A DNA stretch of 64,000 nt. It comes from an uncultured Thiomicrospira sp. Lineage in GTDB: Bacteria; Pseudomonadota; Gammaproteobacteria; CAKMZV01. This document shows, in pieces, positions 29,556 to 53,500 of this stretch (its first letter is position 1; each line of letters begins with the position of its first letter). The notes beneath the pieces were generated by a model that ran no database searches, was not told the DNA's origin, and worked only from the letters and a program-made list of their open reading frames with translations. The stretch spans positions 256,001-320,000 of the forward strand of contig OZ239628.1 in NCBI GenBank assembly GCA_965195345.1, given 5' to 3'. Position numbers and translations under genes: made by a program.

Positions 29556-32500
29556 ATGATTTTGCGCAAATTTGGCGATTTTCTCAAAAAAACATTGCAA
29601 AGCAGCATTGTTCTTTTTGTTGTCGCTTTTTATTCGCCCATAACCAACGCTAATCCGCCCGGCGCCTTTTATCTTGATTTAACAACCATCGAAGACAGTG
29701 CGGCATTTCCTATTTCGCATGGGCCATCTGGGACAAATAGTAGCTCCGGTGGAGGAACTCCAACATATTCTGTTAGCACAACCAATTTTGGCTTCGGAAC
29801 GGTTTCAATCAATAGCGCCAACGGAACGCTACTATTTGCTCGAGTGCCCGGTGGCTTTGGTGGACCAGTACCCATAACCGTAACGATATCCGATTTAAAT
29901 GGTACGGGAACGACTGTTCTCAACTATACAGTCACTGAAACCGAATATGTTCCAACGAGTCCAGTATTTACGATAAATTCTGCAGTCACAGATCTTAACG
30001 GTGTCTCTATCGGGTCTGCGGTGGGTTTGCTACAAGATGATGTTATTGAGCTCCGTGTTGGAAGCTCTATGACCAGATATGTAGTATTACAAAGTGCTAC
30101 TGGTGGCACTGCCAACGATGGGGAGAGTTCTAATTGGCCATCATCTCTTGCCAGCGCCTTTAATCTTGAGAATGGCGCTGGTGTTTTAGTGGGAGAATGT
30201 TCGCTAGGAGGGATTACTATACCTTCGGTATCGATACCTAATTCTTCTGCAATAAGCAGAACGCTTGATGACGAGTGTACATCCGGAGCAAATATCCCCA
30301 TTACAAGCACCTTCCAAAACGTTGTGCGTATAAACCGCAACGGTCCTATACCTTTAACTGCACCAATTTCCCTTACTTTATACCGCGCTCCACCGCTCGC
30401 TGTTTCAACGAACTCGGTGTCAGCAGATGCAGATTTCGGACTACCGATTGTTATTAATGCAACTGCCACTCGGGAAACCACTTCTTCTGCCAGTATTGGA
30501 CCCAGAATAGCATACACCGTCTCACAATCAGTACCAGGTGTTGTTGCGGTTACTTTTACAACAGGACAAATAATACTAACGTCCATACCTAATGCATTTG
30601 GTCAAACAACGCTTACTGTAGTAGCCGCAGGGGGCGGAGGTCTGCTTAGCACAACTGAGACAATTGCAGTTGCAATCGCAAGAATTAACGACCCACCAAC
30701 GATTGAAGTATCAACCAATGCGCTCACGCTGACTGAAGACTTTAGTCCGAATTTTGTCATTAACGTCACGGCAACCGACACGGAAGATGTGACACCAAAT
30801 TTTAGTGTTGTAGCATCCACAGATAGTATTGTCACATTTACGACATCACAAAACACGATCCAATTATCACCAGTTCTTAACGCTAATGGCGTGGTGACGC
30901 TGAGCATTTCTGTAGCTGACTCGTCTAATGTGATTACGACAACGCAAATAGTGGTGACGGTGCTTGAAGACAATGCACTATCGTTCAGACTGTCAACAAA
31001 TCAGCTTGTTATAAGTGAGAACGAAACGGACAGATTACAAAAAATAATTCTTTTCACAGATTTGGATATTCCACCCTCACAAATTCCCTCCCTCGGGTTA
31101 ACTGAGTTGACTGTGAGCATTACGGAGCGTGTAATTTCAGGGGACAACATATTTTCGACGAACCCAATATCAATTGCTACCTTTAGTAGCCGTAATCGTT
31201 CTACAATCTCTTTTATTGTTAGCGGTACTAATCTAATGGATTTAGCAGCCAGATCGGCTGTTTACTATATACAGAGACCAGACTCAGTGGGTGTTGGTGA
31301 AATTTCAGTTTCTATGCGCATTGAAAACGCTGGGACTGTTTTTACAGCTGTTGATACAATTGCTATTACAGTGGTGCCCGCCAACCATCCTCCAGTAATA
31401 ATACCACGTATTAGTGACTCATCAGGTTCCGTAGTTTCTGGAGGCGCTTTTTTCTATTACACAAGTACAGAGAACACGATAGAAGCGCATGCAAATAGAG
31501 TGGCGAACATAGCATCACCCGCCCGAGGATATTTGGGATTTTTCGAGACAGATGTGCAACGCACACAGGTAGAGTCTGTACGCCCAATTGCAAATAATAA
31601 TAATGAAATATTGGGAGTCGCTTCAACGGTAGTTGCCGGTTTAGGTGCAGGAGACGAAGCTTTTTATATCTTAAACAGCACACTGTTGACACGTTTTGGT
31701 GCATCTGGAGGAAGTTCAGGTACTACCGTCCCCGCTGCTGACGCATACGATATTGTCACGGCAATAGGTGTTGCGGCAGGTACCGCTTTGGGGAATGAGT
31801 ACTTACGGCGTGATGATACTGGCATCAGTTTTTTAAATGTGAGCTCAGGCCTTACAGATAGGGCTTTGTATCAGTTTAACGAAGGATTGGCATCGACCAA
31901 CTTAATCACTGTCGTTGCATTTGGAAACACGACCGCTACTAATTTCGTAACGCTAACAGGTTATGATTTAGATGGGACAGATGCTTTAGCATGGAGCGCT
32001 ACAGGAGCCGCTGGATCAGTGGGGCAACTTAACATAAACGTAGTGAATCAGACAAGAGGCGTGGAAGATGTAAGTTTGGACTTTATTCCTCCTGATGGGT
32101 TTTTGGGCAATTCCACTTTTGTAATAACGTTAAACGACGGAACCGGTAATAGCACAGTAACATCAGTCGTTGTATCAGTAGTTGAAGCCCCACCCACTTT
32201 TACCCTGACTACTTCAGCTGTAGTTGTTCCTGAAAATGCTACCGCACGGCAAACAATTGCTATCACTAATGTGGGAGTTGCTAATGGAGCTTCTGTAACG
32301 TTTAGTGTCACAACAGCAGGTGACTCTATTTTCAGTGGTGATCCTGCGCCAGCAGTGTCTTTCGACGACTTAGTGCAAGTGTCATCTGTGGTTAATGCGG
32401 CAACGACTGGTACCGCCAATTTGTATTACACACTAAGTCCCGACTCAACAGGAATAGGACAAATCATAATTACCTTAACGGAAAGTAATTCTGGGAGAGC

Positions 32501-35500
32501 GTATAGCCAGACGGTAACGGTAACGGTGGAATCAATTAACCATACACCAGTCATCACGCAATATTTTGCGGACCACCAGTTTATCGATAGAGGAATAATT
32601 CGTGCACAAGTGGTTGGCGGCGATTTATTCGCTGCACGTGGAGAATATACAGGGGTGAGTGCTACAACGGCAACCGATGGTACGGGCAGCTATCAAGAGC
32701 AATTGGATTTTGCTCGGTCACTTGGTGGAACTTTGGTTGAATTTGATTCTATAGAAGTATACAACGCACTGTTTGGCAATATTTTAACATCCGACACAAG
32801 ATCAGTACCTCTACCAGGGGCGGACATCGATAATGATCGCTTTTGGATAGGTGTAACGGCTGCACCTGATAGGTTTGGTGATCCAACATTTCCACGAGTA
32901 GCTGGTGATAGACTCTTTTATCACTTAACGGGGCAATTGCTATCAAACGGATTTGATGCTGACCGAGTAGAAGTCCCAGGTGTTTACATTGGTTGGGGTG
33001 TTAATTCTCCAGCTGAAGTGGGTGGTAATATTTGTGTTGATCTGATTATAGTACCGGTGTCCGGTTTTGATCCATGGGCGTCTGATACTTGCATCGCAGG
33101 CGCAGGAGGCTTTGTTGTTTTTGGTCTGCTTAAAGCGGTTATGCAATTTCCAGATGGTTTAGCTTCGACTTCGCTTGTGAGCGTAAGAGCACAAGTAAAT
33201 TCAACTGTAACCGTAAACATTAGTGGTTATGATTTAGACGGGGCAGACTCTCCACTTAGCTGGACAGTCAGCGCTGGACCTGAACTTCAGAGTGTAGCTC
33301 AGGATATAACCACCAGTAACGTTGACGTCCAAGCTGGTGCTGAAACATTAAGGGTGGTGTTCCCTCTACCGCTTAATTTTGTTGGGCGAACTACATTAAC
33401 AGTGACATTGAACGATGGATTACTTACTACCAGTGCCCAAATAACAGTGTTGGTTGAAAATGACCCACCAACGATTGATGTATCAACCAATCTGATTACG
33501 TTGAATGAAGACTTTAGTCCGAATTTTGTGATCAATGTGACGGCAACCGACAGGGAAGATGGGGTATTGGCTTTTAGTGTGAGCACAGGAGGATCCGTTG
33601 TAACGCTGTCTCAGATAACAACCGATAGCATCACATTATCTGCAATCCCCAATGCGAATGGCACTGTGACATTGACGTTCACAGCAACGGACAGTATTGC
33701 ATTGGCAGCAACGACTGAAGTTGTTGTGACAGTTAATCCCATTAACGACCCACCAACGATTGAAGTATCAACCAATCTGATTACGTTGAATGAAGACTTT
33801 AGTCCGAATTTTGTCATTAACGTCACGGCAACGGATACAGAAGATGGAGTATTGACTTTTAGTGTGAGCACAGGAGGATCCGTTGTAACGCTGTCGCAGA
33901 TAACAACCGATAGCATCACATTATCTGCAATCCCCAATGCAAGTGGCATTGTGACATTGACGCTCACAGCAACGGACAGTGGTGTATTGACAGCAACGAC
34001 GGAAGTTGTTGTGACAGTTAATTCCATTAACGACCCACCAACGATTGATGTATCAACCAATGCGCTTACGTTAAATGAAGACTTTAGTCCGAATTTTGTC
34101 ATTAACGTCACGGCAACGGATACAGAGGATGGGGTATTGGCTTTTAGTGTGAGCACAGGAGGATCCGTTGTAACGCTGTCGCAGATAACAACCAATAGCA
34201 TCACATTATCTGCAATCCCCAATGTAAGTGGCATTGTGACATTAACGCTCACAGCAACGGACAGTGGTGGATCGGCAGCAACGACGGAAGTTGTTGTGAC
34301 AGTTAATCCCTTTAACGACCCACCAACGATTGAAGTATCAACCAATCTGATTACGTTGAATGAAGACTTTAGTCCGAATTTTGTCATTAACGTCACGGCA
34401 ACGGATACAGAGGATGGGGTATTGGCTTTTAGTGTGAGCACAGGAGGATCCGTTGTAACGCTGTCGCAGATAACAAGCAATAGTATCACATTATCTGCGA
34501 TACCCAATGCGAATGGCATTGTGACATTGACACTCACAACAACGGACAATCTTGGATTTACGACAACGGCGCAAGTTGTCGTGACAGTTAATCCCATTAA
34601 CGACCCACCAACGATTGAAGTATCAACCAATACGCTTACGTTGGATGAAGACTTTAGTCCGAATTTTGTCATTAACGTCACGGCAACGGATACAGAGGAT
34701 GGAGTATTGGCTTTTAGTGTGAGCACAGGAGGATCCGTTGTAACGCTGTCGCAGATAACAACCGATAGCATCACATTATCTGCAATCCCCAATGCAAGTG
34801 GCATTGTGACATTGACGCTCACAGCAACGGACAGTGGTGTATTGACAGCAACGACGGAAGTTGTTGTGACAGTTAATTCCATTAACGACCCACCAACGAT
34901 TGATGTATCAACCAATGCGCTTACGTTAAATGAAGACTTTAGTCCGAATTTTGTCATTAACGTCACGGCAACGGATACAGAGGATGGGGTATTGGCTTTT
35001 AGTGTGAGCACAGGAGGATCCGTTGTAACGCTGTCGCAGATAACAACCAATAGCATCACATTATCTGCAATCCCCAATGTAAGTGGCATTGTGACATTAA
35101 CGCTCACAGCAACGGACAGTGGTGGATCGGCAGCAACGACGGAAGTTGTTGTGACAGTTAATCCCTTTAACGACCCACCAACGATTGAAGTATCAACCAA
35201 TCTGATTACGTTGAATGAAGACTTTAGTCCGAATTTTGTCATTAACGTCACGGCAACGGATACAGAAGATGGAGTATTGGCTTTTAGTGTGAGCACAGGA
35301 GGATCCGTTGTAACGCTGTCCCAGATAACAAGCAATAGTATCACATTATCTGCGATACCCAATGCGAATGGCATTGTGACATTGACACTCACAACAACGG
35401 ACAATCTTGGATTTACGACAACGGCGCAAGTTGTCGTGACAGTTAATCCCATTAACGACCCACCAACGATTGAAGTATCAACCAATACGCTTACGTTGGA

Positions 35501-38500
35501 TGAAGACTTTAGTCCGAATTTTGTCATTAACGTCACGGCAACGGATACAGAGGATGGGGTATTGGCTTTTAGTGTGAGCACAGGAGCATCCGTTGTAACG
35601 CTGTCTCAGATAACAACCAATAGCATCACATTATCTGCAATCCCCAATGCAAGTGGCATTGTGACATTGACGCTCACAGCAACGGACAGTGGTGTATTGA
35701 CAGCAACGACGGAAGTTGTTGTGACAGTTAATTCCATTAACGACCCACCAACGATTGATGTATCAACCAATGCGCTTACGTTGAATGAAGACTTTAGTCC
35801 GAATTTTGTCATTAACGTCACGGCAACGGATACAGAGGATGGAGTATTGGCTTTTAGTGTGAGCACAGGAGGATCCGTTGTAACGCTGTCGCAGATAACA
35901 ACCAATAGCATCACATTATCTGCAATCCCCAATGTAAGTGGCATTGTGACATTAACGCTCACAGCAACGGACAGTGGTGGATCGGCAGCAACGACGGAAG
36001 TTGTCGTGACAGTTAATCCCTTTAACGACCCACCCACGATTGAAGTATCAACCAATGCGCTTACGTTGAATGAAGACTTTAGTCCGGATTTTGTCATTAA
36101 CGTCACGGCAACGGATACAGAGGATGGGGTATTGGCTTTTAGTGTGAGCACAGGAGGATCCGTTGTAACGCTGTCGCAGATAACAACCGATAGCATCACA
36201 TTATCTGCAATCCCCAATGCGAATGGCATTGTGACATTGACGCTCACAGCAACGGACAGTGGTGGATCGGCAGCAACGACGGAAGTTGTTGTGACAGTTA
36301 ATTCCATTAACGACCCACCAACGATTGATGTATCAACCAATGCGCTTACGTTAAATGAAGACTTTAGTCCGGATTTTGTCATTAACGTCACGGCAACGGA
36401 TGCAGAGGATGGAGTATTGACTTTTAGTGTGAGCACAGGAGGATCCGTTGTAACGCTGTCGCAGATAACAACCGATAGCATCACATTATCTGCAATCCCC
36501 AATGTAAGTGGCATTGTGACATTAACGCTCACAACAACAGACAGTATTGGAGTGGCAGCAACGACGGAAGTTGTCGTGACAGTTAGTCCCATTAACGACC
36601 CACCAACGATTGAAGTATCAACCAATCTGCTAACGCTGATTGATAACGTTGCATCTTTTGTGATCAATGCGACGGCAACGGATACAGAGGACGGGGTATT
36701 GGCTTTTAGTGTGAGCACATCCTCGCTTGTCACGGTGTCACAAATAACAACCAATAGCTTCACATTAATTCCTGTTATAGATGCCATTGGAACAGCAACG
36801 TTAACGGTTTCAGCGGTTGATAGTGGCACGTTGCGTGCATCAACTGAAATTGTGGTATTGGTTCGCCCGTTTAACAACACACCAACCTTAACGCTATCAA
36901 CGAACGTGGTAACGGTGTTTGAAAACTATGCAGCTTTTAATATTCTTGCGGTATCAAATGATGTAGAGGGACCGGCAGGTGAGTTTGGCATTACAGCGCA
37001 AGGTCAACCTCCTGGGGCGCCAAGGATTCGTATCAGATTTGGTAACCTCAGTTCACGGACTACTTCAAATGGTTTATTTGAGGCAACACAAGTTATTCAA
37101 ATCGACTCTGGTGTGGCTGATGGTTTTACTCTCCCATTGACTGTTACTGGGACTATATTCACAAGAGATAGCACTTCAGGCGATATCACGCGATTGACTG
37201 CAACACAGCTATTTACGATGATAGTTCTTGAGAATGGTAATGCTGGTTTTCAAGTGAGCACTGATTCAGTTACTGTTCGTGAGGGCGGTGTTTCTTCCAC
37301 TTTTGCTGTTTCGCTCACATCTCAGATAGATCCAGGCGGTTCAATTAATTTGATTCCTTCCCCCGCGATGTTTGGTTTGCCGACACAAGAATTAACCTTT
37401 AATCCACCGTCATTGACGTTTACTAATGCAGATGGTATAGCGTCGCAAACGATTACGGTTTCTGCGGTGGATGATTTTATTGATGAGGATACAGAAACGA
37501 TAGTGGTTTCATTCACAGTCACGAGTACGAATTCTATTGGACAGGCTTATATAGCGGATGCGGGCGCGGTCCCGACGTTGAACGTAAGTGTTATAGACAA
37601 CGACACGGCGGGGATTAGCGTGAGCCCATTGGCATTAACAGTTTCGGAAGCTGGAGGGATGGCTACGATAGCGGTTCGATTGGATGCTCAGCCTGAAAGT
37701 ACGGTTGTGATTAACGTTTCGACAACAGGGGTGTTTATTCGTGAATTTGTGAAGACGGTTACAGTAAGCGATGTATTGCTCAGCTTTACTTCGTTGAGTT
37801 GGCAGACGCCACAGACGATTACGATCACGGGTCAGGATAATGATTTTGATGATGGTACTCAGATGGTAGCGGTTAGTTTTGCTTCAACGGTTGTATCGGG
37901 TGCGGACACGAATACGCAATCGCATTGGGCGGGCGCACAGAGTCAGTTAGCGACGGTACCAGTTACGATATTGGACGATGATACAGCGAGTGTAGTAGTG
38001 AGTGCTTTGAGCACAAACGTTTTGAGGGAGAGTGTGGCGAATGATTCATTGACCTTCACAATTCGTTTGGGCGCTAGACCGTTTGATCCAGTAACTGGTA
38101 ATATTGGGTTATTGAATGAACTCGTTGGTGGTTTGGTTGATTCGACACTTAGTACCACGCGTTTAAGCTTTAGTACGGGTACATCAAGTTGGCAGACGTT
38201 ACAAACGGTTACGGTTACGGTATTGGATGATGATTTTGATGATGGTACACGTATTACAACGTTGACGATATCTGCATCATCTGCAGAGTTTGGTTTCAAC
38301 AACGTCCCAACTCAAACACGCGTCTATCAAACCCTTGATGATGACACGCGTGGTTTGTTTGTTAACCCGTCGAGCTTGACGGTAACAGAAGGGAGTGCGA
38401 CTTCGGCGTTTGAAGTACGCTTGACAAGTCGTCCGTTTGGTTCAGTGGTTGATGTATCTTTTAGTAGTGAACATAGTTTTGTTTTTGGTACGGATGTTCC

Positions 38501-41500
38501 GAATCAATCGTTCTTGAGTACGAGTAATATTCAATTTGGTACGAACGCTAGTGATTGGCAGACGCCGCAGACAATTACGGTTACGGCGTTTGATGATTTT
38601 GTTGATGATGGTACGCAGACATCGACATATACTTTGAATGTATCGGGTGGTGATTATGGTCCGAGTGAGAATGCGACGTTAACGGTTTTAGCGTTGGATG
38701 ATGATACGGCAGGATTTGTGGTGGCGCCGTTATTCACGACACTCATAGAAGCGGCTAGTGCAGCAGCTGCAGATCGGAGTGATGTTATAGAGATCAGAGC
38801 CCAATCACAACCGACAGGTACGATAACGTTATTGGTTAATACGACGAGCAGTGATGGTTCGGATCAGCTAACGTTATCGAATTCGAGTGCTTCATCGAAC
38901 AGCAGTATTCGTTTGTCGTTTACTTCACAGACGTGGAATACGCCGTTGCTATTCACGGTTACGGCGATAGATGAGTTGATCAATGACGATGGTGCGCATA
39001 CAACGGTAAGTTTTAGTGTGGATACTACAGGCGTTATTAGTGGGTACAGTGCGGCAACGCCATTGGATCCGGTGCGTGTTGCTATTACTGATAATGAGGG
39101 CTCTGGTTTTCAAGTGAGCCCTAGTTCAGTTACTGTTAGTGAGGGCGGTGGTTTTTCCACTTTTGCTGTTTCGCTCACTTCTCAGATACCTGCAGGCGGT
39201 GTAATTTATTTGACTCCTTCCCCCGAGATGGTTGGTCTATCGACACAAGAATTGACCTTTAATCCATCGTCATTGACGTTTACTAATGCAAATGGTTTAG
39301 CGGCGCAAACGATTACGGTTTTTGCGGTGGATGATTTTATTGCTGAGGATACAGAAACGATAGCGGTTTCATTCACAGTCACGACTGCGGATCCTGTTGG
39401 ACAGACTTATATATCGAATCCGGACTTTACGCCTTCGACGTTGAGCGTACGTATTATAGACAACGACACGGCTGGGATTAGCGTGAGTCCATCGGCATTA
39501 ACAATTTCGGAAGCTGGAGGGATGGCTACGATAGCGGTTCGATTGGATGCTCAGCCTGAAAGTACGGTTGTGATTAACGTTTCGACAACAGGGGTGAGTC
39601 TTCTTGACGTTGAAAAATCGGTTACATTAAGCAATGCATTACTCAGCTTTACTCCGTATCCTTCGTTGAGTTGGCAGACGCCACAGACGATTATGGTCAC
39701 GGGTCAAGATGATGATTTTGCTGATGGTACCCAGACGGTATCGGTTAGTTTTGCTTCAACGGTTGTATCGGGTGCGGACACGAATACGCAATCGCATTGG
39801 GCGGGCGCACAGAGTCAGTTATCGACGGTACCGGTTACGATATTGGACGATGATACAGCGAGTGTAGTAGTGAGTGCTTTGAGCACAAACGTTTTGAGGG
39901 AGAGTGTGGCGAATGATTCATTGACCTTCACAATTCGTTTAGGCGCTAGACCGCTTTCAACAGTAACTGTTGTTGTTGGGTTAATGAATGAACTCGTTGG
40001 TGGCTTGGTTGATTCGACACTTAGTGCCACGCGTTTAAGCTTTAGTACGAGTGCATCAAGTTGGCAAACGCCACAAACGGTTACGGCTACGGTATTGGAT
40101 GATGATTTTGATGATGGTACACGCAATACAACGTTGACGATATCTGCATCATCTATTCAGCCTGCTTACAACGAATTAGCAACTCAAACACGCGTCTATC
40201 AAACCCTTGATGATGACACGCGTGGTTTGTCTGTTAACCCGTTGAACTCGACGGTAACAGAAGGGGGTGCGACTTCGACGTTTGAAGTACGCTTGACAAG
40301 TCGTCCGTTTGGTTCAGTGGTTGATGTATCTTTTAGTAGTGAACATAGTTTTGTTTTTGGTACGGATGTTCCGAATCAATCGTTCTTGAGTACGAGTAAT
40401 ATTCAATTTGGTACGAGTGCATCAAGTTGGCAGACGGCGCAGACAATTACGGTTACGGCGTTTGATGATTTTGTTGATGATGGTACGCAGACATCGACAT
40501 ATACTTTGAATGTATCGGGTGGTGATTATGGTCCGAGTGAGAATGCGAGGTTAACGGTTTCAGCGTTGGATAATGATACGGCAGGATTTGTGGTGGCGCC
40601 GTTATTCACGACACTCACGGAAGCGAGTGGTGCAAGTCAGACTGATGAGATAGAGATCAGAGCCCAATCACAACCAACAGGTACGATAACGTTATTGGTT
40701 AATACGGCGAGCAGTGATGGTTTGGATCAGCTAACGTTATTGAATTCGAGTGCTTCATCGAACAGCAGTATTCGTTTGACGTTTACTTCACAGAGTTGGA
40801 ATACGCCGTTGCTATTGACGGTTAGGGCTATAGATGAGTCGTTCAATGACGTTGATGCGCATACAACGGTAAGTTTTAGTGTGGATACTACAGGCGTTAT
40901 TAGTGGGTACAGTGCTGCAACGGCATTGGATTCGGTGCGTGTTGCCATTATTGATAATGAGAATGCTGGTTTTCAAGTGGACCCTGGTTCAGTTACTGTT
41001 AGTGAGGACGGTAGTTCTGCCACTTTTGCTGTTTCGCTCACTTCTCAGATACGTGGAGGCGGTTCAATTAATTTGACTCCTACCCCGGAGATGGTTGGTC
41101 TATCGACACAAGAATTGACCTTTGATCCACCGTCATTAACGTTTACTAGCGCAAATGGTTTAGCGTCGCAAACGATGACGGTTTTTGCGGTGGATGATTT
41201 TATTGATGAGGATACAGAAACGATAGCGGTTCCATTCACAGCCACGAGTACGGATACTATTGGACAACAATACATAGAGGATCCGAGCTTTATGGCCTCG
41301 ACGTTGAACGTAACTATTATAGACAACGACACGGCTGGGATTAGCGTGAGCCCATTGGCATTAACAATTTCGGAAGCTGGAGGGACGGCTACGATAGCAG
41401 TTCGATTGGATGCCCAGCCTGAAAGTACGGTTGTGATTAACGTTTCGACAACAGGGGTGAATTTTTCTGAATTTGTGAAGACGGTTACATTAAGCGATGT

Positions 41501-44500
41501 ATTGCTCAGCTTTACTTCGTTGAGTTGGCAGACGACACAGACGATTACGCTCACGGGTCAAGATAATGATTTTTTTGATGCTACCCAGACGGTATCGGTT
41601 AGTTTTGCTTCAACGGTTGTATCGGGTGCGGACACGAATACGCAATCGCATTGGGCGGGCGCACAGAGTCAGTTATCGACGGTAGCGGTTACGATATTGG
41701 ACGATGATACAGCGAGTGTAGTAGTGAGTGCTTTGAGCACAAACGTTTTGAGGGAGAGTGTGGCGAATGATTCATTGACCTTCACAATTCGTTTAAGTAG
41801 TAGACCGTTTAATCAAGTAAATGTTGATGTTGGGTTATTGAATGAACTCGTTGGTGGCTTGGTTGATTCGACACTTAGTGCCACGCGTTTAAGCTTTAGT
41901 ACGGGTACATCAAGTTGGCAAACGCCACAAACGGTTACGGTTACGGTATTGGATGATGATTTTGATGATGGTACACGCAATACAACGTTGACAATATCTT
42001 CTGTATCATCTAATGACCCTGCTTACAACGCATTAGCGGATCAAACACGCGTCTATCAAACCCTTGATGATGACACGCGTGGTTTGTCTGTTAACCCGTT
42101 GAACTTGACGGTAACAGAAGGGGGTGCGACTTCGACGTTTGAAGTACGCTTGACAAGTCGTCCGTTTGGTTCAGTGGTTGATGTATCTTTTAGTAGTGAA
42201 CATAGTTTTGTTTTTGGTACGGATGTTCCGAATCAATCGTTCTTGAGTACGAGTAATATTCAATTTGGTACGAGTGCATCAAGTTGGCAGACGGCGCAAA
42301 CGGTTACGGTTACGGCGTTTGATGATTTTGTTGATGATGGTACGCAGACATCGACATATACTTTGAATGTATCGGGTGGTGATTATGGTCCGAGTGAGAA
42401 TGCGACGTTAACGGTTTTAGCGTTGGATGATGATACGGCAGGATTTGTGGTGGCGCCGTTATTCACGACACTCACGGAATCGGCTAGTTCAAATCAGGAT
42501 GTTATAGAGATCAGAGCCCAATCACAACCGACAGGTACGATAACGTTATTGGTTAATACGACGAGCAGTGATGGTTCGGATCAGCTAACGTTATCGAATT
42601 CGAGTGCTTCATCGAACAGCAGTATTCTTTTGGCGTTTACTTCACAGAGTTGGAATACGCCGTTGCTATTGACGGTTACGGCGATAGATGAGTTGATCAA
42701 TGACGATGGTGCGCATACAACGATAAGTTTGAGTGTGGATACTACAGGCGTTATTAGTGGTTACAGTGCTGCAACGGCATTGGATTCGGTGCGTGTTGCC
42801 ATTATTGATAATGAGAGTCCTGGTTTTCAAGTGAGGCCTCCTTCAGTTATTGTTAGTGAGGACGGTAGTTCTGTCACTTTTGGTGTTTCGCTCACTGCTC
42901 AGATAGCTGCAGGCGGTTCAATTGTTTTAATTCCTTCCCCCGAGATGTTTGGTCTATCGACACAAGAATTGACCTTTAATCCAGCGTCATTAACGTTTAC
43001 TAGCGCAAATGGTTTAGCGTCGCAAACGATGACGGTTTCTGCGGTGGATGATTTTATTGATGAGGATACAGAAACGATAGCGGTTCCATTCACAGCTACG
43101 AGTACGAATACTACTGGACAGGCTTATATAGCGGATGCAGACTTTACATTCTCGACGTTGAGCGTAAATGTTATAGACAACGACACGGCTGGGATTAGCG
43201 TGAGTCCATTGGCATTAACAGTTTCGGAAGCTGGAGGGACGGCTACGATAGCGGTTCGATTGGATGCCCAGCCTGAAAGTACGGTTGTGATTAACGTTTC
43301 GACAACAGGGGTGAATTTTTCTGAATTTGTGAAGACGGTTACATTAAGCGATGTATTGCTCAGCTTTACTTCGTTGAGTTGGCAGACGACACAGACGATT
43401 ACGCTCACGGGTCAAGATAATGATTTTTTTGATGCTACCCAGACGGTATCGGTTAGTTTTGCTTCAACGGTTGTATCGGGTGCGGACACGAATACGCAAT
43501 CGCATTGGGCGGGCGCACAGAGTCAGTTATCGACGGTAGCGGTTACGATATTGGACGATGATACAGCGAGTGTAGTAGTGAGTGCTTTGAGCACAAACGT
43601 TTTGAGGGAGAGTGTGGCGAATGATTCATTGACCTTCACAATTCGTTTAAGTAGTAGACCGTTTAATCAAGTAAATGTTGATGTTGGGTTATTGAATGAA
43701 CTCGTTGGTGGCTTGGTTGATTCGACACTTAGTGCCACGCGTTATATTTTTAGTACGGGTACATCAAGTTGGCAAACGCCACAAACGGTTACGGTTACGG
43801 TATTGGATGATGATTTTGATGATGGTACACGTATTACAACGTTGACGATATCTTCTGTATCATCTAATGACCCTGCTTACAACGCATTAGCGGATCAAAC
43901 ACGCGTCTATCAAACCCTTGATGATGACACGCGTGGTTTGTCTGTTAACCCGTTGAACTTGACGGTAACAGAAGGGGGTGCGACTTCGACGTTTGAAGTA
44001 CGCTTGACAAGTCGTCCGTTTGGTTCAGTGGTTGATGTATCTTTTAGCAGTGTACATAGTTTTGTTTTTGGTACGGATGTTCCGAATCAATCGTTCTTGA
44101 GTACGAGTAATATTCAATTTGGTACGAATGCATCAAGTTGGCAGACGGCGCAGACAATTACGGTTACGGCGTTTGATGATTTTGTTGATGATGGTACGCA
44201 GACATCGACATATACTTTGAATGTATCGGGTGGTGATTATGGTTCGAGTGAGGATGAGACGTTAACGGTTTCAGCGTTGGATAATGATACGGCAGGATTT
44301 GTGGTGGCACCGTTATTCACGACAATCACGGAATCGGCTAGTTCAAATCAGGATGTTATAGAGATCAGAGCCCAATCACAACCAACAGGTACGATAACGT
44401 TATTGGTTAATACGACGAGCAGTGATGGTTCGGATCAGCTAACGTTATCGAATTCGAGTGCTTCATCGAACAGCAGTATTCGTTTGTCGTTTACTTCACA

Positions 44501-47500
44501 GACGTGGAATACGCCGTTGCTATTCACGGTTACGGCGATAGATGAGTTGATCAATGACGATGGTGCGCATACAACGGTAAGTTTGAGTGTGGATACCACA
44601 GGCGTTATTAGTGGGTACAGTGCGGCAACGCCATTGGATCCGGTGCGTGTTGCCATTATTGATAATGAGAGTCCTGGTTTTCAAGTGAGGCCTCCTTCAG
44701 TTACTGTTAGTGAGGACGGTAGTTCTGCCACTTTTGGTGTTTCGCTCACTGCTCAGATAGCTGCAGGTGGTTCAATTGTTTTAATTCCTTCCCCCGAGAT
44801 GTTTGGTCTATCGACACAAGAATTGACCTTTGATCCACCGTCATTAACGTTTACTAATGCAAATGGTTTAGCGTCGCAAACGATGACGGTTTTTGCGGTG
44901 GATGATTTTATTGCTGAGGATACAGAAACGATAGCGGTTCCATTCACAGCCACGAGTACGAATACTACTGGACAGGCTTATATAGCGGATGCAGACTTTA
45001 CATTCTCGACGTTGAGCGTGAATGTTGTAGACAACGACACGGCTGGGATTAGCGTGAGTCCATCGGCATTAACAATTTCGGAAGCTGGAGGGATGGGTAC
45101 GATAGAGGTTCGATTGGATGCTCAACCTGAAAGTACGGTTGTGATTAACGTTTCGACAACAGGGGTGAATTTTTCTGAATTTGTGAAGACGGTTACAGTA
45201 AGCGATGTATTGCTCAGCTTTACTTCGTTGAGTTGGCAGACGACACAGACGATTACGCTCACGGGTCAAGATAATGATTTTGATGATGGTAATCAGACGG
45301 TATCGGTTAGTTTTGCTTCAACGGTAGTATCGGGGGCGGACACGAATACGCAATCGCATTGGGCGGGCGCACAGAGTCAGTTATCGACGGTAGCGGTTAC
45401 GATACTGGACGATGATACAGCGAGTGTAGTAGTGAGTGCTTTGAGCACAAACGTTTTGAGGGAGAGTGTGGCGAATGATTCATTGACCTTCACAATCCGC
45501 TTAGGTAGTAGACCGTTTAATCTAGTAAATGTTGATGTTGGGTTATTGAATGAACTCGTTGGTGGTTTGGTTGATTCGACACTTAGTGCCACGCGTTTAA
45601 GCTTTAGTACGGGTACATCAAGCTGGCAGACGTTACAAACGGTTACGGCTACGGTATTGGATGATGATTTTGATGATGGTACACGTATTACAACGTTGAC
45701 GATATCTTCTGTATCATCTTCTGACCCTGCTTACAACGAATTAGCAACTCAAACACGCGTCTATCAAACCCTTGATGATGACACGCGTGGTTTGTCTGTT
45801 AACCCGTTGAACTCGACGGTAACAGAAGGGGGTGCGACTTCGACGTTTGAAGTACGCTTGACAAGTCGTCCGTTTGGTTCAGTGGTTGATGTATCTTTTA
45901 GCAGTGTACATAGTTTTGTTTTTGGTACGGATGTTCCGAATCAATCGTTCTTGAGTACGAGTAATATTCAATTTGGTACGAGTGCATCAAGTTGGCAGAC
46001 GGCGCAGACAATTACGGTTACGGCGTTTGATGATTTTGTTGATGATGGTACGCAGACATCGACATATACTTTGAATGTATCGGGTGGTGATTATGGTCCG
46101 AGTGAGAATGCGACGTTAACGGTTTTAGCGTTGGATGATGATACGGCAGGATTTGTGGTGGCGCCGTTATTCACGACACTCACGGAAGCGCTTGGTCAAG
46201 ACCAAAATGAAATTATAGAGATCAGACCCCAATCACAACCAACAGCTACGATAACGTTATTGGTTAACACGACGAGCAGTGATGGTTCGGATCAGCTAAC
46301 GTTATCGAATTCGAGTGCTTCATCGAACAGCAGTATTCTTTTGACGTTTACTTCACAGAGTTGGAATACGCCGTTGCTATTGGTGATTACGGCGATAGAT
46401 GAGTTGATCAATGACGATGGTGCGCATGCAACGATAAGTTTGAGTGTGGATACTACAGGCGTTATTAGTGGGTACAGTGCTGCAACGCCATTGGATCCGG
46501 TGCGTGTTACCATTATTGATAATGAGAGGCCTGGTTTTCAAGTGAGCCCTAGTTCAGTTACTGTTAGTGAGGACGGTGTTTCTGCCATTTTTGGTGTTTC
46601 GCTCACTGCTCAGATAGCTGCAGGCGGTTCAATTGTTTTAATTCCTTCCCCCGAGATGTTTGGTCTATCGACACAAGAATTGACCTTTAATCCATCGTCA
46701 TTAACGTTTACTAATGCAAATGGTTTAGCGTCGCAAACGATGACGGTTTCTGCGGTGGATGATTTTATTGATGAGGATACAGAAACGATAGCGGTTTCAT
46801 TCACAGCCACGAGTACGAATACTACTGGACAGGCTTATATAGCGGATGCGGACTTTATATTCTCGACGTTGAACGTAACTATTATAGACAACGACACGGC
46901 TGGGATCAGCGTGAGCCCATCGGCATTAACAGTTTCGGAAGCTGGAGGGACGGCTACGATAGCAGTTCGATTGGATGCTCAGCCTGAAAGTACGGTTGTG
47001 ATTAACGTTTCGACAACAGGGGTGAATTTTTCTGAATTTGTGAAGACGGTTACAGTAAGCGATGTATTGCTCAGCTTTACTTCGTTGAGTTGGCAGACGA
47101 CACAGACGATTACGCTCACGGGTCAAGATAATGATTTTGATGATGGTACCCAGACGGTATCGGTTAGTTTTGCTTCAACGGTTGTATCGGGTGCGGACAC
47201 GAATACGCAATCGCATTGGGCGGGCGCACAGAGTCAGTTATCGACGGTAGCGGTTACGATATTGGACGATGATACAGCGAGTGTAGTAGTGAGTGCTTTG
47301 AGCACAAACGTTTTGAGGGAGAGTGTGGCGAATGATTCATTGACCTTCACAATTCGCTTAGGTAGTAGACCGTTTGATCCAGTAACTGTTGATGTTGGGT
47401 TATTGAATGAACTCGTTGGTGGTTTGGTTGATTCGACACTTAGTGCCACGCGTTTAAGCTTTAGTACGGGTACATCAAGTTGGCAGACGTTACAAACGGT

Positions 47501-50500
47501 TACGGTTACGGTATTGGATGATGATTTTGATGATGGTACACGCAATACAACGTTGACAATATCTTCTGTATCATCTAATGACCCTGCTTACAACGCATTA
47601 GCGGATCAAACACGCGTCTATCAAACCCTTGATGATGACACGCGTGGTTTGTCTGTTAACCCGTTGAACTCGACGGTAACAGAAGGGGGTGCGACTTCGA
47701 CGTTTGAAGTACGCTTGACAAGTCGTCCGTTTGGTTCAGTGGTTGATGTATCTTTTAGCAGTGTACATAGTTTTGTTTTTGGTACGGATGTTCCGAATCA
47801 ATCGTTCTTGAGTACGAGTAATATTCAATTTGGTACAAACACTAGTGATTGGCAGACGCCGCAGACAATTACGGTTACGGCGTTTGATGATTTTGTTGAT
47901 GATGGTACGCAGACATCGACATATACTTTGAATGTATCGGGTGGTGATTATGGTCCGAGTGAGAATGCGACGTTAACGGTTTTAGCGTTGGATGATGATA
48001 CGGCAGGATTTGTGGTGGCGCCGTTATTCACGACACTCACGGAAGCGAGTGGTGCAAGTCAGACTGATGAGATAGAGATCAGAGCCCAATCACAACCAAC
48101 AGGTACGATAACGTTATTGGTTAATACGACGAGCAGTGATGGTTCGGATCAGCTAACGTTATCGAATTCGAGTGCTTCATCGAACAGCAGTATTCTTTTG
48201 GAGTTTACTTCACAGAGTTGGAATACGTCGTTGCGATTGACGATTACGGCGATAGATGAGTTGATCAATGACGATGGTGCGCATACAACGATAAGTTTGA
48301 GTGTGGATACTACAGGCGTTATTAGTGGTTACAGTGCTGCAACGTCATTGGATTCGGTGCGTGTTGCCATTATTGATAATGAGAGTCCTGGTTTTCAAGT
48401 GAGCCCTAGTTCAGTTACTGTTAGTGAGGACGGTGTTTCTTCCACTTTTGGTGTTTCGCTCACTGCTGGATTAGGCGCAGGTGGTTCAATTGTTTTAATT
48501 CCTTCCCCCGAGATGTTTGGTCTATCGACACAAGAATTGACCTTTAATCCATCGTCATTGACGTTTACTAATGCAGATGGTTTAGCAACGTTGACGATGA
48601 CGGTTTTTGCGGTGGATGATTTTATTGCTGAGGATACAGAAACGATAGCTGTTCCGTTCACAGCCACGAGTACGAATACTACTGGACAGGCTTATATAGC
48701 GGATGCAGACTTTACATTCTCGACGTTGAGCGTAAATGTTATAGACAACGACACGGCTGGGATTAGCGTGAGCCCATTGGCAGTAACAGTTTTGGAAGCT
48801 GGAGGGACGGCTACGATAGCGGTTCGATTGGATGCTCAGCCTGAAAGTACGGTTGTGATTAATGTCTCAACGAGTGCAATTAGTCCATTAGCATTTACAG
48901 GAGGTGTTAATTTCTCACGTACACAGATATTTTTCTCCCCTCATCCAAGCACAGCGTGGATGGATACTCAAACATTAACGGTCACAGCGATTAATGATGA
49001 CTTTGATGATGATACACAGACGTTAACGGTTAGTTTTGCTTCAACGGTTGTATCGGGGGCGGATTTGAATACGCAATCGCATTGGGCGGGCGCACAGAGT
49101 CAGTTATCGACGGCATTGATTACAATATTGGATGATGATGTGGCTTTTGTTTCGTTGAGTACAACGGATCTGGGGATTATTTATGAACAAGCTGCAGGCG
49201 GAATTACGCAGACCACTTTTGAAGTGTCGCTGTCAACGATACCTATAGCGGATGTTGAAGTTTCATTTGCACAAGTTTTTTCTGCGCCAAGTACGGAGTT
49301 GTTGAACATACCATCAATTACATTTCCAGCTTTCATTTCAGGGGCATTTAGTTCCCAAACGATCACGGTGAGAGCGTTTCATGACATGGAGGATGATGAC
49401 ACGCAAGTAGTCAGTATATTGCTGAATGCTTCAGGTACGAATTCCTATAGTACAGCACTTGAAATTGACACGGTTACGGTTACAGTTATAGATTTAGATG
49501 TTCGAGGGGTAACTGCTACTCCGACCACTTTGACGGTTAGTGAGGATGGACTTGAAGGAGGTTTTGCGAGCACTGCTTTATTCACCGTTGTTTTGGATTC
49601 AAGACCGTTCTTTGCGACAGGTGTTGCTCAAACCGTTGTGCTTAATTCAACGTTGGTAAGTTCATTCATTGGAGCAAGTGCGGCTACATCGCAACAAATA
49701 ACCTTTTCACCAAGAACGTTAGTATTCAATCGCAGCAATTGGGATATTGCTCAACAAGTATTGGTTACAGCGGTGGATAACGTTATTGATGAAGGGACTC
49801 AGCAATCGACGATAACGTTGGGCGCATCAGGAGGCGATTATTTGTCAGGAGTAAATGAAGATGAAGTGGTTGTTACTGTTTTAGATGAGGATGAGGCGGG
49901 CGTGCTGGTTGTTCCAACTTCTCTAACGGTAACCGAAGATCAAACAATTAGCCCTTCAGCGGTATTTTTAGTTCGTTTATTGACGCAGCCAAACGCTCTG
50001 GTATCAGTGGGTGTTTTCTCAACGATCAACACGACTTCTCCAGATACTGGTCAGGTTTTTGGTGTACCCCAAATCACTTTAGAAACATCAAGTCAAGCTA
50101 TTAGTAGTGAGAGTGTGACGTTAGATTTTACTGCATTGAATTATTTTGTTACTCAAACGGTCACGGTACGAGCAATTGATGATAGTTTGAATGATGAGAC
50201 ACAAATAACGACGGTTGCGTTGAGCATCGTGAGCACACCAAATTCTGGCTATAATTCAGCATTGGAGATTAGTTCAGTACGCGTTACGGTGCTTGATGAT
50301 GAAAATGCTGGATTTGTTTTTTCCACTCAAACGCTTAGTTTAATCGAAGGGGAGAGTGATTCAATCAGAGTGCGTTTGCGTTCTCAACCTACGCAGGATG
50401 TCCAATTGAACGCGCGTTATACGCTAAACGGTTTAACGACGAGTGAGTTGACGTTTACTCCAGACACATTAATCTTTACCAGTGTGACTTGGGATATTGA

Positions 50501-53500
50501 ACAAAACGTCATCGTTTTGGCGGTTGATGATTTTGTTGATGAGGATGAAGAGGTGGTGCAGGGAAGTTTTAACGCGATATCATCGGATACAAGCTACATC
50601 AACAGCAGTGATTTTTTAGGAGATACATTAACTCTAACGATAACGGATAACGATACTGCAGGAATAACATTTACGACGGATCAGTTGGTTATTGGGGAGG
50701 TCTCGAGCATCCTAAGTACGGTTGCAATGTTTGGTATTCGTCTTGATGCGCAACCAGAAAGCACGGTAGTGCTAACGTTGAGTACGCGTGTTCTGAGTGT
50801 GAGTCCTGGTTTTTCAACGAGTCAAATAGGTTCTTCTTTTGATATAAGTACGTTGAGGCTTACGTACGCACCATTTCCATCGACGAGTTGGCAAACGACG
50901 CAAATTGTAACGTTGAATGCGATTGATGATTTTTACGATGATGACACACAGACCTTTACACTGAGTGCTCAAAGCACCGTTTTATTGACGGCGGATACGA
51001 ACACGAGGAATCATTGGAGCGGTTCAAATGCGCAGTTTGCAAGTTTGGACGTTGTCGTTGTTGATGAGGATGTGGCTGGAATAATTGCACGTGTGGTTGG
51101 AGCGCCTTTATCGGTTTCAGAAGAAGGTGAGAGCACGCAAGTTATCGAGGTTCGTTTGAGCGCTCAACCGTTTGAAGAAGTTCCAATATTGAGCGATACT
51201 TCGATTAATTACACTATTTTGTCGAACGGGCGCACGAGTGAGGTAATCTTAATCAACTCGACGTTCTCCTTTAATACCTTAGTTTCAGGAATAGGGTCAT
51301 GGCAAAGCACGCAGTCCTTCGTGGCGCAGGGTGTAGAGGATTTTGTTGACGATGATACGCAAACGTTTGTTCTGTCTATCCGTACAACGAACACGATTGA
51401 TCCGAAATATCAATTTGTTGATGAGCAGAGCACTTTAGGACTTAGTATTGATAATGATGTCGCTGAGTTATTATTGTCTGCGAATAGCACTCCGTTAACG
51501 GTCATTGATGCTTTATTTGATCCCAATAATGGGGCAACGTTTAGCACGTTCTCAGTGCGTTTGGCTACGGAACCTGTTAATGATGTCACGCTTTTAGCAT
51601 TTTCTACGAGTGCAACATTGGGAGTTATCGATTCGGCGATGAGAACGTTGAGCTTTACAAGTTTGAATTGGGACAGAGCACAGGTAGTGACGTTGCAAGG
51701 TGTTCCTGATATTCCTCCGAGTACGGATCCTACGCAAAGTTTTACGGTTCGAGTTGAAGTGAGCTCACTAACGGTGGATTTGGCTTACAGCTCTCCTACA
51801 CGTGTTCAGGCAGAAGAGATTGATGCGATTAATATCAATGATGATTTGCCAGGCTTTACGATTAGCCCGTTGCAATTGTCTTTGGTTGAGCGCAGTCAGA
51901 GCCAATCGACCGGTGTTTATCAGATTAGGACTAATACTGCGCCGAGCGGGAATGATGCTGTTTTGACCATACGAACGAGCACTCAAAATGCAGGGTTTAA
52001 TCCTGAGTTAACATTGAGTGATGGGACAACTCAGACAACTCAGACAACATTGGAATTGCGATTCACGGCGGGTGTTATTAGCACAATAGCGGTTACGGTA
52101 TCGGTTGTTGATGATCATGCATTGATCGGAGCAGATAGGCTTTTTGTGAATTTTCACTCTAGTACAGGTGGGAATGGTTTTTATATATTTGATGAGACAG
52201 AGTTGAGTGAAGTAAATATTTCAGTAGGCGATGATGAGACCATCGACGGTGTTAATGCCTTCATCACGAAAATAGCAGATGGTAATGAAGGGGTTAGTTC
52301 TCAAGCTGGGGCAAATGTAGTTATAGGTGATGAAGAGCCGGTTGAATTCAGGACGGGTTTGAGGAACATAAATACGGATCAGATTGTTACGAATCGTACA
52401 GGAGGGGTGATTGTTTTTGATACGACTATCACAGGCGGACGGGTTGCATTGGGTGGTTCTTCTGCGACGGGCTCAGCAGATATTGATATAGTGACGTTTG
52501 AGCATTCCATTATAGATGGCTCAACGAGTGTGCTCCAGACGTGGCCGACCTTGGAGGACCCTGCATTTGAGGGTTACCCTGATGAAGAAGCTATAGAAGT
52601 TGGTTTGATATTACGCACGACTACGTTGAGGATTTTCACGGCGAACGCTACGGCTACAGCGGATGTTATAGACAATGATAACTTCCAAGTGGGGCTTAGA
52701 ATTGTAAACACCGAAAACGGTGCTGAGTCTGAGTTAAATGATAGACCGGTAATATTTGAAGGCTCAATGTCTTTGGCGAACTATACGGGCTCGACGATTG
52801 TTTTGAGTGTGAACTATGTTGAAGTACCAGGGGGTGCAATTCCCCAATTTTCTCGAACGTCAGGGTTTGACTATTTCACGGAAACCAGCCCTCATATTTT
52901 GATTTTAGCGGGTCACACAACGGGTCAATTTCTTGTTGAGGTTTTTGACGATTTGATATTTGAAAATACGGAAGAGGTACAGGTTGAAATACTTAATCCT
53001 GATCCTAATAGCTCAGTGTTCGTGGTGATTGGAGGAGGCGCAATAGGGACGATTGAAGATAATGAAGACCTTCAAGTAGGTTTATCAGTGATCACGGGCA
53101 ATGAGAGCGCGGGCACAATGACATTTCGAGTGTTTTTAAATAGAGAAAATAATACAGGCAGTACGCTTAATTTTGATGTTTTTAGCACGCAGGCGGTGGG
53201 ATTTGCATTGAGCACTTCAAGAAGAGCGACTTTTAATACAGACTATTCTTTTGGAGGATTAAGCGCTCAGAGGGCATCGGTTGCAGTGAATGCCTTGGAT
53301 ACCACTGGTCCAATAACGCTTATTGACGATGATTTGCTTGAGGGTACGGAAAGTTTTTATCTTTCGCTTTCTCTTGATCCCGTAGGCTTGGATCCTAACA
53401 TTGTAAGTAGGATTATTGTTAGTACAACGCCGGTGGAAGGTTTCATCGTTGATGACGAGGCATCGCGTGTACGATTGCGATTGTATGCTGAGTCAATTGG

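Follow-up and report, generated by a model that had tools for sequence, protein, structure and literature searches.

Repeats in the shaft of very large bacterial surface proteins are commonly seen as passive spacers that recombination keeps identical. LapA, MpIBP and SiiE are giant repeat adhesins that leave the cell through type I secretion; they are thousands of residues long and their tandem calcium-binding Ig-like domains form an extended fibre, a likeness shared with the giant protein described here. Periscope proteins and fibrillar-adhesin stalks are also very long surface proteins of tandem Ig-like domains. In the available part of the source, they are described as carrying repeats so similar at the DNA level that recombination between them is possible, an export signal at the N-terminus and an anchoring-type tail at the C-terminus, with strain-to-strain length variation as their defining behaviour (PMC8201768). 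A further parallel is offered by the red and green opsins, the MHC and yeast heat-shock duplicates, in which islands of amino-acid difference persist in copies that frequent conversion homogenises, with high divergence at selected sites and low divergence elsewhere; according to theory in the available part of the source, selection is able to preserve differences between paralogues despite frequent conversion (PMC3924837). A search of titles and abstracts, which is weak evidence, found no published report of selection among repeats within one bacterial adhesin gene.

The window, i.e., the whole 64,000-nt stretch that was analysed, contains a super-repeat that sits within a single open frame (29556 to beyond 63998). 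This giant ORF (29556..64000, plus strand) runs past the window edge to genome position 328629 and comprises 14,357 codons. The protein starts with a signal-like segment, judged by eye from the translation, contains the Pfam domains Big_9 and Calx-beta, and continues outside the window with TSP3 repeats (TSP3_bac match) and a C-terminal sorting-tag-like tail. The tail is hydrophobic and basic, and scored 23.4 bits against JDVT-CTERM, below the cut-off of 27. A Pfam search of the last 1200 residues found only Calx-beta and TSP3_bac, with no RTX (HemolysinCabind) repeats. Unlike LapA, MpIBP and SiiE, the protein thus combines a lack of RTX repeats in this region with a Sec-type signal-like start and a weakly matching JDVT-CTERM tail, and therefore its export route is probably different from type I. 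The giant protein, which belongs to an uncultured marine gammaproteobacterium, is probably exported and tethered to the membrane as a surface fibre. It resembles the periscope proteins in its length, its tandem Ig-like domains, the DNA-level similarity of its repeats and its two termini, although the latter are here only signal-like and weakly matching. The available part of the source regards the periscope stalk as a passive spacer whose length varies (PMC8201768). Here, by contrast, the repeated element is a higher-order unit made of five domains, identity among the copies is just 82–93%, and amino-acid differences are in excess in one domain type.

The earlier note had counted seven units. 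Seven unit starts are indeed present, but only six units are full, each of 1854–1863 nt; the seventh is array-like only in domain A and about one third of domain B. Motif anchors and the alignment placed U1 at 37245..39104, U2 at 39105..40967, U3 at 40968..42821, U4 at 42822..44675, U5 at 44676..46532 and U6 at 46533..48389, and the array-like part of U7 at 48390..48870, all on the plus strand. Past this point lies a diverged transition unit, which matches the "last" unit of a related genome, G004. Every unit consists of five Calx-beta-like domains, designated A to E, which in U1 occupy 37245–37598 (A), 37599–37973 (B), 37974–38336 (C), 38337–38696 (D) and 38697–39104 (E) on the plus strand. 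The protein identity of the 620-residue units is 82–87% to U1 and 83–93% to U4. Upstream, at 33462..36767 (plus strand), is a tandem array of the 285-nt (95-residue) Big_9 or "tandem-95" type, for which TRF gave 11.6 copies with 91% matches and in which the repeats share 89–100% DNA identity; the NCBIfam tand_rpt_95 match itself lies upstream of that array, over the protein's first 1300 amino acids. That the super-repeat is part of the fibre shaft, built as six full five-domain units of Ig-like Calx-beta-type sandwiches, is a reading that we hold jointly with the explanation developed below and, taken together with it, consider somewhat more probable than its contrary.

Within the super-repeat no lone stretch cleared the cut-off of 27 bits for Calx-beta (PF03160), which was exceeded by the window segment 37245–41000 (44.0 bits) and by two matches further downstream (61.0 and 162.1 bits). 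Domain A was modelled by AF2 at a pLDDT of 93.8, and a Foldseek search with the model retrieved the NCX CBD1/CBD2 chains 3gin, 2qvm, 2qvk and 2dpk at TM 0.57–0.63; because pilus chaperones outranked these NCX chains, we describe the fold as generic Ig-like. The units contain a conserved DDFI(D/A)EDTE loop and an IDNDTAG linker, which we take to be putative calcium-binding elements.

Burial was judged by proxies, namely hydrophobicity in outside homologues and predicted secondary structure, rather than from coordinates. By these proxies the variable sites of domain A avoid the hydrophobic core and favour loops: 5 of 32 outside-hydrophobic (core-proxy) positions vary, versus 48 of 86 polar positions (p = 1.3e-4). 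At least three amino-acid states occur in 17 of the 118 columns (loops 10/50, short helix 4/10, strands 3/58), and in U1 the codons concerned start at 37257, 37263, 37290, 37296, 37329, 37332, 37347, 37407, 37443, 37533, 37536, 37545, 37554, 37563, 37566, 37569 and 37587. The variable sites are hence not scattered, and the hot spot that had been read as QIDPGG/QIPAGG/QIRGGG/QIAAGG/GLGAGG is present across the units in the alignment. Columns identical in outside homologues have an omega of 0.50 and vary in 10 of 99 cases, compared with 111 of 377 for outside-variable columns (Fisher p = 4.6e-5). Purifying selection retains the fold-determining residues.

The observation that began this work, an excess of amino-acid changes between U1 and U2 in domain A, is real: among 118 codons, 36 are replaced non-synonymously and 3 synonymously, the differences by codon position are 27:14:4, and the NG86 dN/dS is 2.92. 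The accompanying statement that each replaced codon keeps its third base holds for 35 of the 36, the exception being alignment column 110 (GTC/CCT). This pair is, however, among the most extreme of the 21 domain-A pairs, for which dN/dS ranges from 0.51 to 3.62; those involving U7 fall under 1 or close to it (0.51–0.57 versus U4–U6), and the 15 full-unit pairs give 0.70–1.72. Per-column counts, a recombination-proof statistic that takes the minimal changes per alignment column, yielded Sd 64.5, Nd 231.5 and an omega of 1.15 (p = 0.17) over U1–U6, and therefore the claim that the copies diverge almost only by amino-acid-changing substitutions was overstated. These values are what would be expected from the main alternative, a near-neutral drift of young, individually dispensable repeats in which each shaft domain matters little and in which multi-nucleotide mutations, the choice of an extreme pair and chance lift some subsets above an omega of 1. 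We regard it as a possible, if rather unlikely, account. It is favoured by the whole-unit omega of 1.11–1.15, indistinguishable from 1 (p 0.17–0.24; 0.97 without U2), by the extreme position of the first pair, and by the 65 of 118 domain-A columns free of any amino-acid change, matching the Poisson expectation of about 65 at the neutral rate (a hand calculation). Double changes at adjacent bases are seen in each of the three codon phases (22:11:15), and therefore multi-nucleotide events exist and inflate the step counts, which also fits drift.

Taken as a whole, domain A is only borderline, at p = 0.05–0.08. Its omega was 1.66 by per-column counts (p = 0.051) and 1.46 in a one-ratio maximum-likelihood (ML) fit (p = 0.083 versus 1), which gave 0.69 for B, 0.78 for C, 0.69 for D and 1.35 for E; by per-column counts the entire domain E stands at 1.39. 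The private steps of U2 are nearly all amino-acid-changing (4 synonymous, 41 non-synonymous; omega about 3.4, p = 0.006). M1a/M2a comparisons returned 2dlnL values of 36.3 for domain A and 80.2 when partitioned, but carry little weight because both control arrays also came out "significant" (10.3 and 25.0).

A clearer departure was seen in the outside-variable columns, a site class fixed beforehand from homologues outside the array. Per-column counts for this class gave Sd 36.5, Nd 167.5 and an omega of 1.56 (p = 0.005), and ML with fixed site classes gave 1.41 (p = 0.0098). When each codon change was counted as one event, 26 synonymous versus 147 non-synonymous events remained (7 versus 55 in domain A), with omega still 1.93 (p = 0.0007). 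Three neutral expectations placed omega at 1.58–1.92, the empirical fourfold-site spectrum giving the same expected synonymous share (0.248), and removal of columns near indels left it at 1.56–1.65. In neutral simulations the median was 0.99 and the 95th percentile 1.28, and 0 of 300 reached 1.56. Drift is thus opposed by a prior-defined class that lies above neutrality in four differently built tests, and the clear constraint on the core shows that the domains are not in decay.

The excess is robust in domain A (37245..37598 in U1, plus strand, recurring in each unit), where outside-variable columns have an omega of about 2–2.9 across tests and 2.25 in the ML fit with fixed classes (p = 0.0018), as compared with 0.95 for domains B–D. 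Across tests the outside-variable sites of B–D range over 0.75–1.24, as drift would have it. For domain E (38697..39104 in U1, plus strand, likewise recurring) the excess is suggestive and weaker than in A: its outside-variable columns hold 25.5 non-synonymous steps against 1.5 synonymous ones (p = 0.026, or 0.06–0.07 minus columns near indels). Domains A and E were picked out only after the data had been seen; together they retain an omega of 2.3–3.4 without U1, U2 or both. Imported patches do not account for the hot columns of domain A: domain-A columns with 0, 1 and at least 2 non-synonymous events have much the same synonymous rate (0.24, 0.30 and 0.30), and in G004 the hot columns change at nearly equal synonymous (0.96) and non-synonymous (1.02) rates. 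As omega exceeds 1 for a class defined in advance, diversifying or difference-maintaining selection on exposed positions, mainly in domain A, is plausible, on a sample of six non-independent units from one genome. At the level of whole units the recombination-corrected omega is in essence no higher than 1, against the strong diversifying selection proposed earlier, and where selection is plausible the effect is much weaker than had been supposed.

The units are heavy gene-conversion mosaics that evolve in concert. Across 95 parsimony-informative sites, 59.1% of site pairs failed the four-gamete test, neighbouring sites were more compatible than permuted ones (0 of 2000 permutations reached the observed value), and trees of different domains conflict with one another. 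Two arrays served for comparison. The eleven units of the 95-residue array, an internal control, have an omega of 0.49 (0.64 by ML) with position changes of 19:13:26, and the orthologous array of G004, which has the same architecture and its own units homogenised to 97–100% identity, has an omega of 0.35 (range 0.33–0.64); both show a third-position excess. Arrays of the same gene and of its orthologue, similar or younger in age, thus lie at 0.33–0.64 and not at the value of 1 that drift predicts. The amino-acid excess is absent in the related G004 array, i.e., it is not replicated in an independent lineage. The gene is missing from two same-genus genomes, no closer relatives were found, and public runs yielded only short, ambiguous contig pieces.

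An inflated omega would also result if silent sites were constrained by codon choice, mRNA structure or translation speed, such that dS underestimates the neutral rate. The third positions of the gene are indeed strongly skewed (T 0.40, G 0.30, A 0.20, C 0.10), and the silent rates used here all come from coding sequence. However, the synonymous rate of domain A (0.176) is not below that of B (0.162) or C (0.169), while its non-synonymous rate is about twice theirs; third positions change amply in the 95-residue array of the same transcript (26 of 58); and the skew agrees with the GC and AT skew along the whole strand of the gene, as would be expected of a mutational bias. We consider such constraint very improbable. 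Selection against misfolding or aggregation of near-identical domains in one chain might likewise drive units apart, and the available part of the source notes that adjacent domains of large proteins are usually less than 50% identical, a feature proposed to limit misfolding (PMC8201768). Here, though, same-type domains are four domains apart and immediate neighbours are already only about 30–38% identical, the changes keep away from the strand cores expected to join in domain swapping, and the directly adjoining 95-residue domains, at 89–100% identity, are without such an excess, which leaves this explanation a shade less probable still. The variation does recall the targets of diversity-generating retroelements (DGRs) in having several amino-acid states per codon with the third base unchanged, and the multi-state NNT codons varying at positions 1 and 2 bear what we presume to be a superficial likeness to DGR variable regions. 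If the targeted diversification suggested in the earlier note is taken to mean a DGR or other templated mutator that writes codon positions 1 and 2, it is nevertheless scarcely credible. A search for RVT_1 in the closed, 99.7% complete genome was negative while the same search was positive in 3 of 14 control genomes, adenine makes up 0.08–0.39 of the mismatches over all 42 ordered pairs (base share 0.24), and all four bases serve as the starting base of changes. A DGR-type mutator was rejected, as neither a reverse transcriptase, a template repeat nor an adenine-specific pattern was found.

The explanation that we favour, and to which we give slightly better than an even chance, is selection for amino-acid differences among units under concerted evolution, with the fold constrained and the excess foremost in domain A. 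Frequent short-tract gene conversion among units would shuffle and erase differences, and purifying selection would hold the fold-determining residues. At exposed, long-term-variable positions, foremost in A and possibly in E, amino-acid differences would amount to about twice the silent-based prediction, whereas exposed positions of domains B to D would drift at about the neutral rate. The cause would be selection favouring differences among units, either by repeated fixation of new surface variants or, equally possible, by the shielding of unit-specific residues from homogenisation, as in duplicated genes under conversion. We infer that the excess is due to selection and not to an unmodelled mutational bias, and we likewise infer all that is said here of the selective agent. 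The available part of the source presents the opsins, MHC and heat-shock duplicates as separate genes with known functional differences (PMC3924837); the present copies are domains of one polypeptide and differ at many exposed positions instead of a few.

Should the excess on exposed loops of one repeated domain type prove reproducible, shaft domains themselves could be targets of selection, and the tandem domains of one protein would resemble a small recombining gene family, bringing adhesin biology together with the theory of duplicates under gene conversion. On the control arrays the standard site-model tests falsely reported "positive selection", and such repeats therefore need recombination-proof statistics. 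The earlier note's panel of variant epitopes, turned against phage, grazers or a host, is a conjecture. A more speculative reading, which we think doubtful, is that the array is a library within one molecule and that the fibre displays six variants of one recognition surface. Gene conversion would then shuffle about 120 amino-acid polymorphisms among six units while selection keeps the A-domain loops different. If so, several ligand variants might be captured, or decoy and escape surfaces presented toward phage tail proteins or host lectins, and what is called the "stalk" of a giant adhesin would not be a spacer but an organ of binding, active and diversified. Near the far, N-terminal end of the protein, a possible C-type-lectin-like module (32553..33185, plus strand; residues 1000–1210) can be offered as a lead only: it had no Pfam match at E up to 5, and Lectin_C is carried by its nearest Atlas clusters with a score of 0.92 (26 of 30 hits; 162 of 256 shared features).

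The super-repeat lies within an open reading frame that starts at window position 29556, continues past the window end and comprises 14,357 codons in the genome, which is assembled as one 1.92-Mb contig. The super-repeat begins at 37245, downstream of a tandem array of 95-residue Big_9 ('tandem-95') repeats (33456–36767). Six full units of 1854–1863 nt each (U1–U6) were identified, with starts at 37245, 39105, 40968, 42822, 44676 and 46533, and a seventh (U7, from 48390) is array-like in domain A and the start of domain B only. Every full unit is built of five domains (A to E) of the Ig-like, Calx-beta type. For domain A, AlphaFold2 produced a confident model (pLDDT 93.8), whose Foldseek matches are Ig-like sandwiches; the Na/Ca exchanger's calcium-binding domains are among them.

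An earlier note, made from the sequence alone, had claimed from a hand alignment of domain A in U1 and U2 that the repeat copies diverge almost only by amino-acid-changing substitutions. For this pair the count was borne out, with 36 replaced and 3 silent among the 118 codons compared, differences by codon position of 27:14:4, and a dN/dS of 2.92; the third base, said to be kept in every replaced codon, was kept in all except one. The variable loop QIDPGG/QIPAGG/QIRGGG/QIAAGG/GLGAGG was also confirmed in domain A, where 17 of the 118 columns have at least three amino acid states. U1/U2 is among the most extreme pairs, as evidenced by dN/dS ranges of 0.51–3.62 over 21 domain-A pairs and 0.70–1.72 over 15 full-unit pairs. 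This is in part because the private changes of U2 (39105–40967) are so skewed towards replacement (4 silent and 41 replacing, far above any other unit), the private ratios of U3–U6 being equivalent to omega values of 0.3–0.9. Judged by this skew, U2 may serve in a different role.

The claim fails when it is extended to the whole array. Per-column counting, a recombination-proof approach in which a minimal set of changes is assigned separately to every alignment column, gave an omega of 1.15 for U1–U6 (Sd 64.5, Nd 231.5, p = 0.17). By domain, the values were 1.66 for A (p = 0.051), 0.74 for B, 0.95 for C, 0.92 for D and 1.39 for E; the one-ratio maximum-likelihood estimates were 1.46, 0.69, 0.78, 0.69 and 1.35, respectively, none significantly different from 1. 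Changes by codon position were 118:101:77, a deficit at the third position (p = 0.004). Two arrays served as controls: the 95-residue array of the same gene (omega 0.49, position changes 19:13:26) and the orthologous array of G004, a genome from the same family as the host and a different genus (0.35, 21:17:41). Beside these, a whole-array omega near 1 is unusual, in a sample of one genome and six non-independent units.

U1–U6 are thorough mosaics: tree topology varies between domains, 59.1% of the pairs among 95 informative sites fail the four-gamete test, and the compatibility of neighbouring sites exceeds that in all 2000 permutations. Tree-based site tests are therefore suspect. The M1a/M2a comparison was run in our own GY94/F3x4 code, for which the agreement of the M0 log-likelihood (−1130.29) with that of IQ-TREE was the sole cross-check of the codon models. 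It gave 2dlnL values of 36.3, 7.3, 14.6, 7.5 and 24.2 for domains A to E and 80.2 for the partitioned unit. Since both control arrays pass this test as well (95-residue array 10.3; G004 array 25.0) with ordinary overall omega, it was dropped as evidence of selection and given zero weight. The G004 signal traces to a single patch, converted from a diverged unit, in which the third base is altered in 10 of 12 codons.

Alignment columns were instead classed beforehand from outside homologues alone, these being the next diverged unit of the same gene and, from G004, the units termed first, array, last and next. Omega was 0.50 at the 99 columns identical in all outside homologues (10 amino-acid-variable in the array), 0.70 at the 132 mostly conserved columns (36 variable) and 1.56 at the 377 outside-variable columns (111 variable; p = 0.005), with silent rates alike over the three classes (0.150, 0.184 and 0.127). 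A likelihood model with these fixed site classes yielded 0.45, 0.87 and 1.41 (p = 0.0098 for the variable class); at the outside-variable columns it gave 2.25 for domain A (p = 0.0018), 2.13 for E (p = 0.015) and 0.95 for B–D. Simulating neutral evolution 300 times on the fitted trees showed the statistic to be unbiased (median 0.99); none of the runs reached 1.56, and the value observed for domain A alone was reached in 11. Alternative neutral expectations placed the outside-variable omega at 1.58–1.92. Mutational bias was rejected as the cause: in the fourfold-site spectrum C is about twice as mutable, and the expected silent share remains 0.248. Misalignment near indels was likewise set aside, as removal of such columns left the outside-variable omega at 1.56–1.65, with domain E alone dropping to p = 0.06–0.07. 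Without U1, U2 or both, the outside-variable columns of domains A and E, a focus picked after the data were seen, stayed at 2.3–3.4.

The main rival to selection, which we regard as less likely, is that domains which are each dispensable drift near-neutrally and also acquire multi-nucleotide mutations. Adjacent double changes, found in all codon phases (22:11:15), speak for it; their phase bias is not significant and adds no support for selection. Counting one event per codon change, which is conservative towards multi-nucleotide events, gave 26 silent and 147 replacing changes at outside-variable columns (omega 1.93, p = 0.0007), and 7 and 55, respectively, at those of domain A.

The location of the changes on the domain A model was evaluated using outside hydrophobicity and predicted secondary structure as proxies for burial. 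Of 32 positions that are hydrophobic in the outside homologues, 5 vary, conservatively only, against 48 of 86 polar positions (p = 1.3e-4, by this proxy); within strands, the corresponding fractions are 4/24 and 18/34. Multi-state columns occupy 10 of 50 loop positions, 4 of 10 in the short helix and 3 of 58 in strands. Since the silent rate in domain A is flat from cold to hot columns (0.24, 0.30 and 0.30), the hot columns are not imported diverged patches.

The best reading combines three layers: (i) gene conversion would drive concerted evolution of the units, (ii) purifying selection would preserve the domain fold, and (iii) selection would favour amino acid differences among units at exposed positions. 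Of the diversifying selection proposed earlier for exposed sites, the part concerning domain A is robust and that concerning E suggestive; it is absent in B–D and does not describe the array as a whole, at omega 1.15. The preserved differences amid homogenised units match what theory predicts for duplicates under gene conversion (PMC3924837). Data from one genome would fit either repeated fixation of new variants or protection of old ones. The targeted diversification also proposed was not borne out; a diversity-generating retroelement (DGR) was excluded, and any other templated mutator rejected, because the closed genome has no reverse transcriptase and adenine bias is absent.

The protein begins with a signal-like segment, read by eye from the translation. 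Residues 1000–1210 (window 32553–33185) form a non-repeat module of about 210 residues whose nearest Atlas neighbours are Lectin_C clusters (score 0.92), and window 31353–31955 is perhaps similar; neither stretch has a Pfam match, and the module at 32553–33185 may be a candidate ligand-binding head. The super-repeat is followed by Calx-beta domains that are more diverged and span several thousand residues; past the window end, bacterial TSP3 repeats (TSP3_bac) precede a C-terminal end in which a glycine run and two cysteines are followed by a hydrophobic helix and a basic tail (8500–8628 of L064, the genome stretch beyond the window). The tail matched JDVT-CTERM at 23.4 bits, below the cut-off of 27. 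In build, the protein resembles fibrillar adhesins and periscope proteins (PMC8201768), the latter defined by length variation between strains, an adhesive tip being at most hinted at; unlike in type I-secreted adhesins, Pfam identified no RTX end in its last 1200 residues. Its gene has housekeeping neighbours, gyrB, nusA, infB and truB among others. The region has a single minus-strand ORF of at least 150 aa, which does not recur in the other units and was taken as chance, not antisense coding. GC skew is strongly positive, about +0.16 to +0.23, from about 38000 to the window end, within the giant gene, and near zero or negative over the first 11 kb or so of the window.

A scan of metagenome contigs located relatives in three loci only (26–30% identical), and one of genome contigs found G004 at 48% identity and otherwise 34 loci at 24–35%, in many phyla. 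Part of the stretch is present in five public runs, and the four examined consist of fragmentary contigs (in X2, 121 of 240 pieces fit two places). A contig of another run, X1, joins window 46002 back to 38566 (unit 5 to unit 1), and 180 of its letters fit on either side of the join; it is either a repeat assembly chimera or a variant with another unit order. G004 has the same gene architecture: its first unit is diverged, the array that follows is homogenised, and the two transition units after it correspond to U7 and to the next unit of the present gene. This architecture occurs on two contigs (L024, G004:C17:48000-67000; L025, G004:C24:1-16000) whose units differ by 1–3%; either G004 has two giant paralogues or its assembly is split here. 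Lastly, a higher-order periodicity of three units runs through the 95-residue array, with identities of 99–100% among r3/r6/r9, 99% between r4 and r7 and 96–99% among r2/r5/r8, and only 89–95% between adjoining units, a pattern that points to a recent duplication of an 855-nt block.
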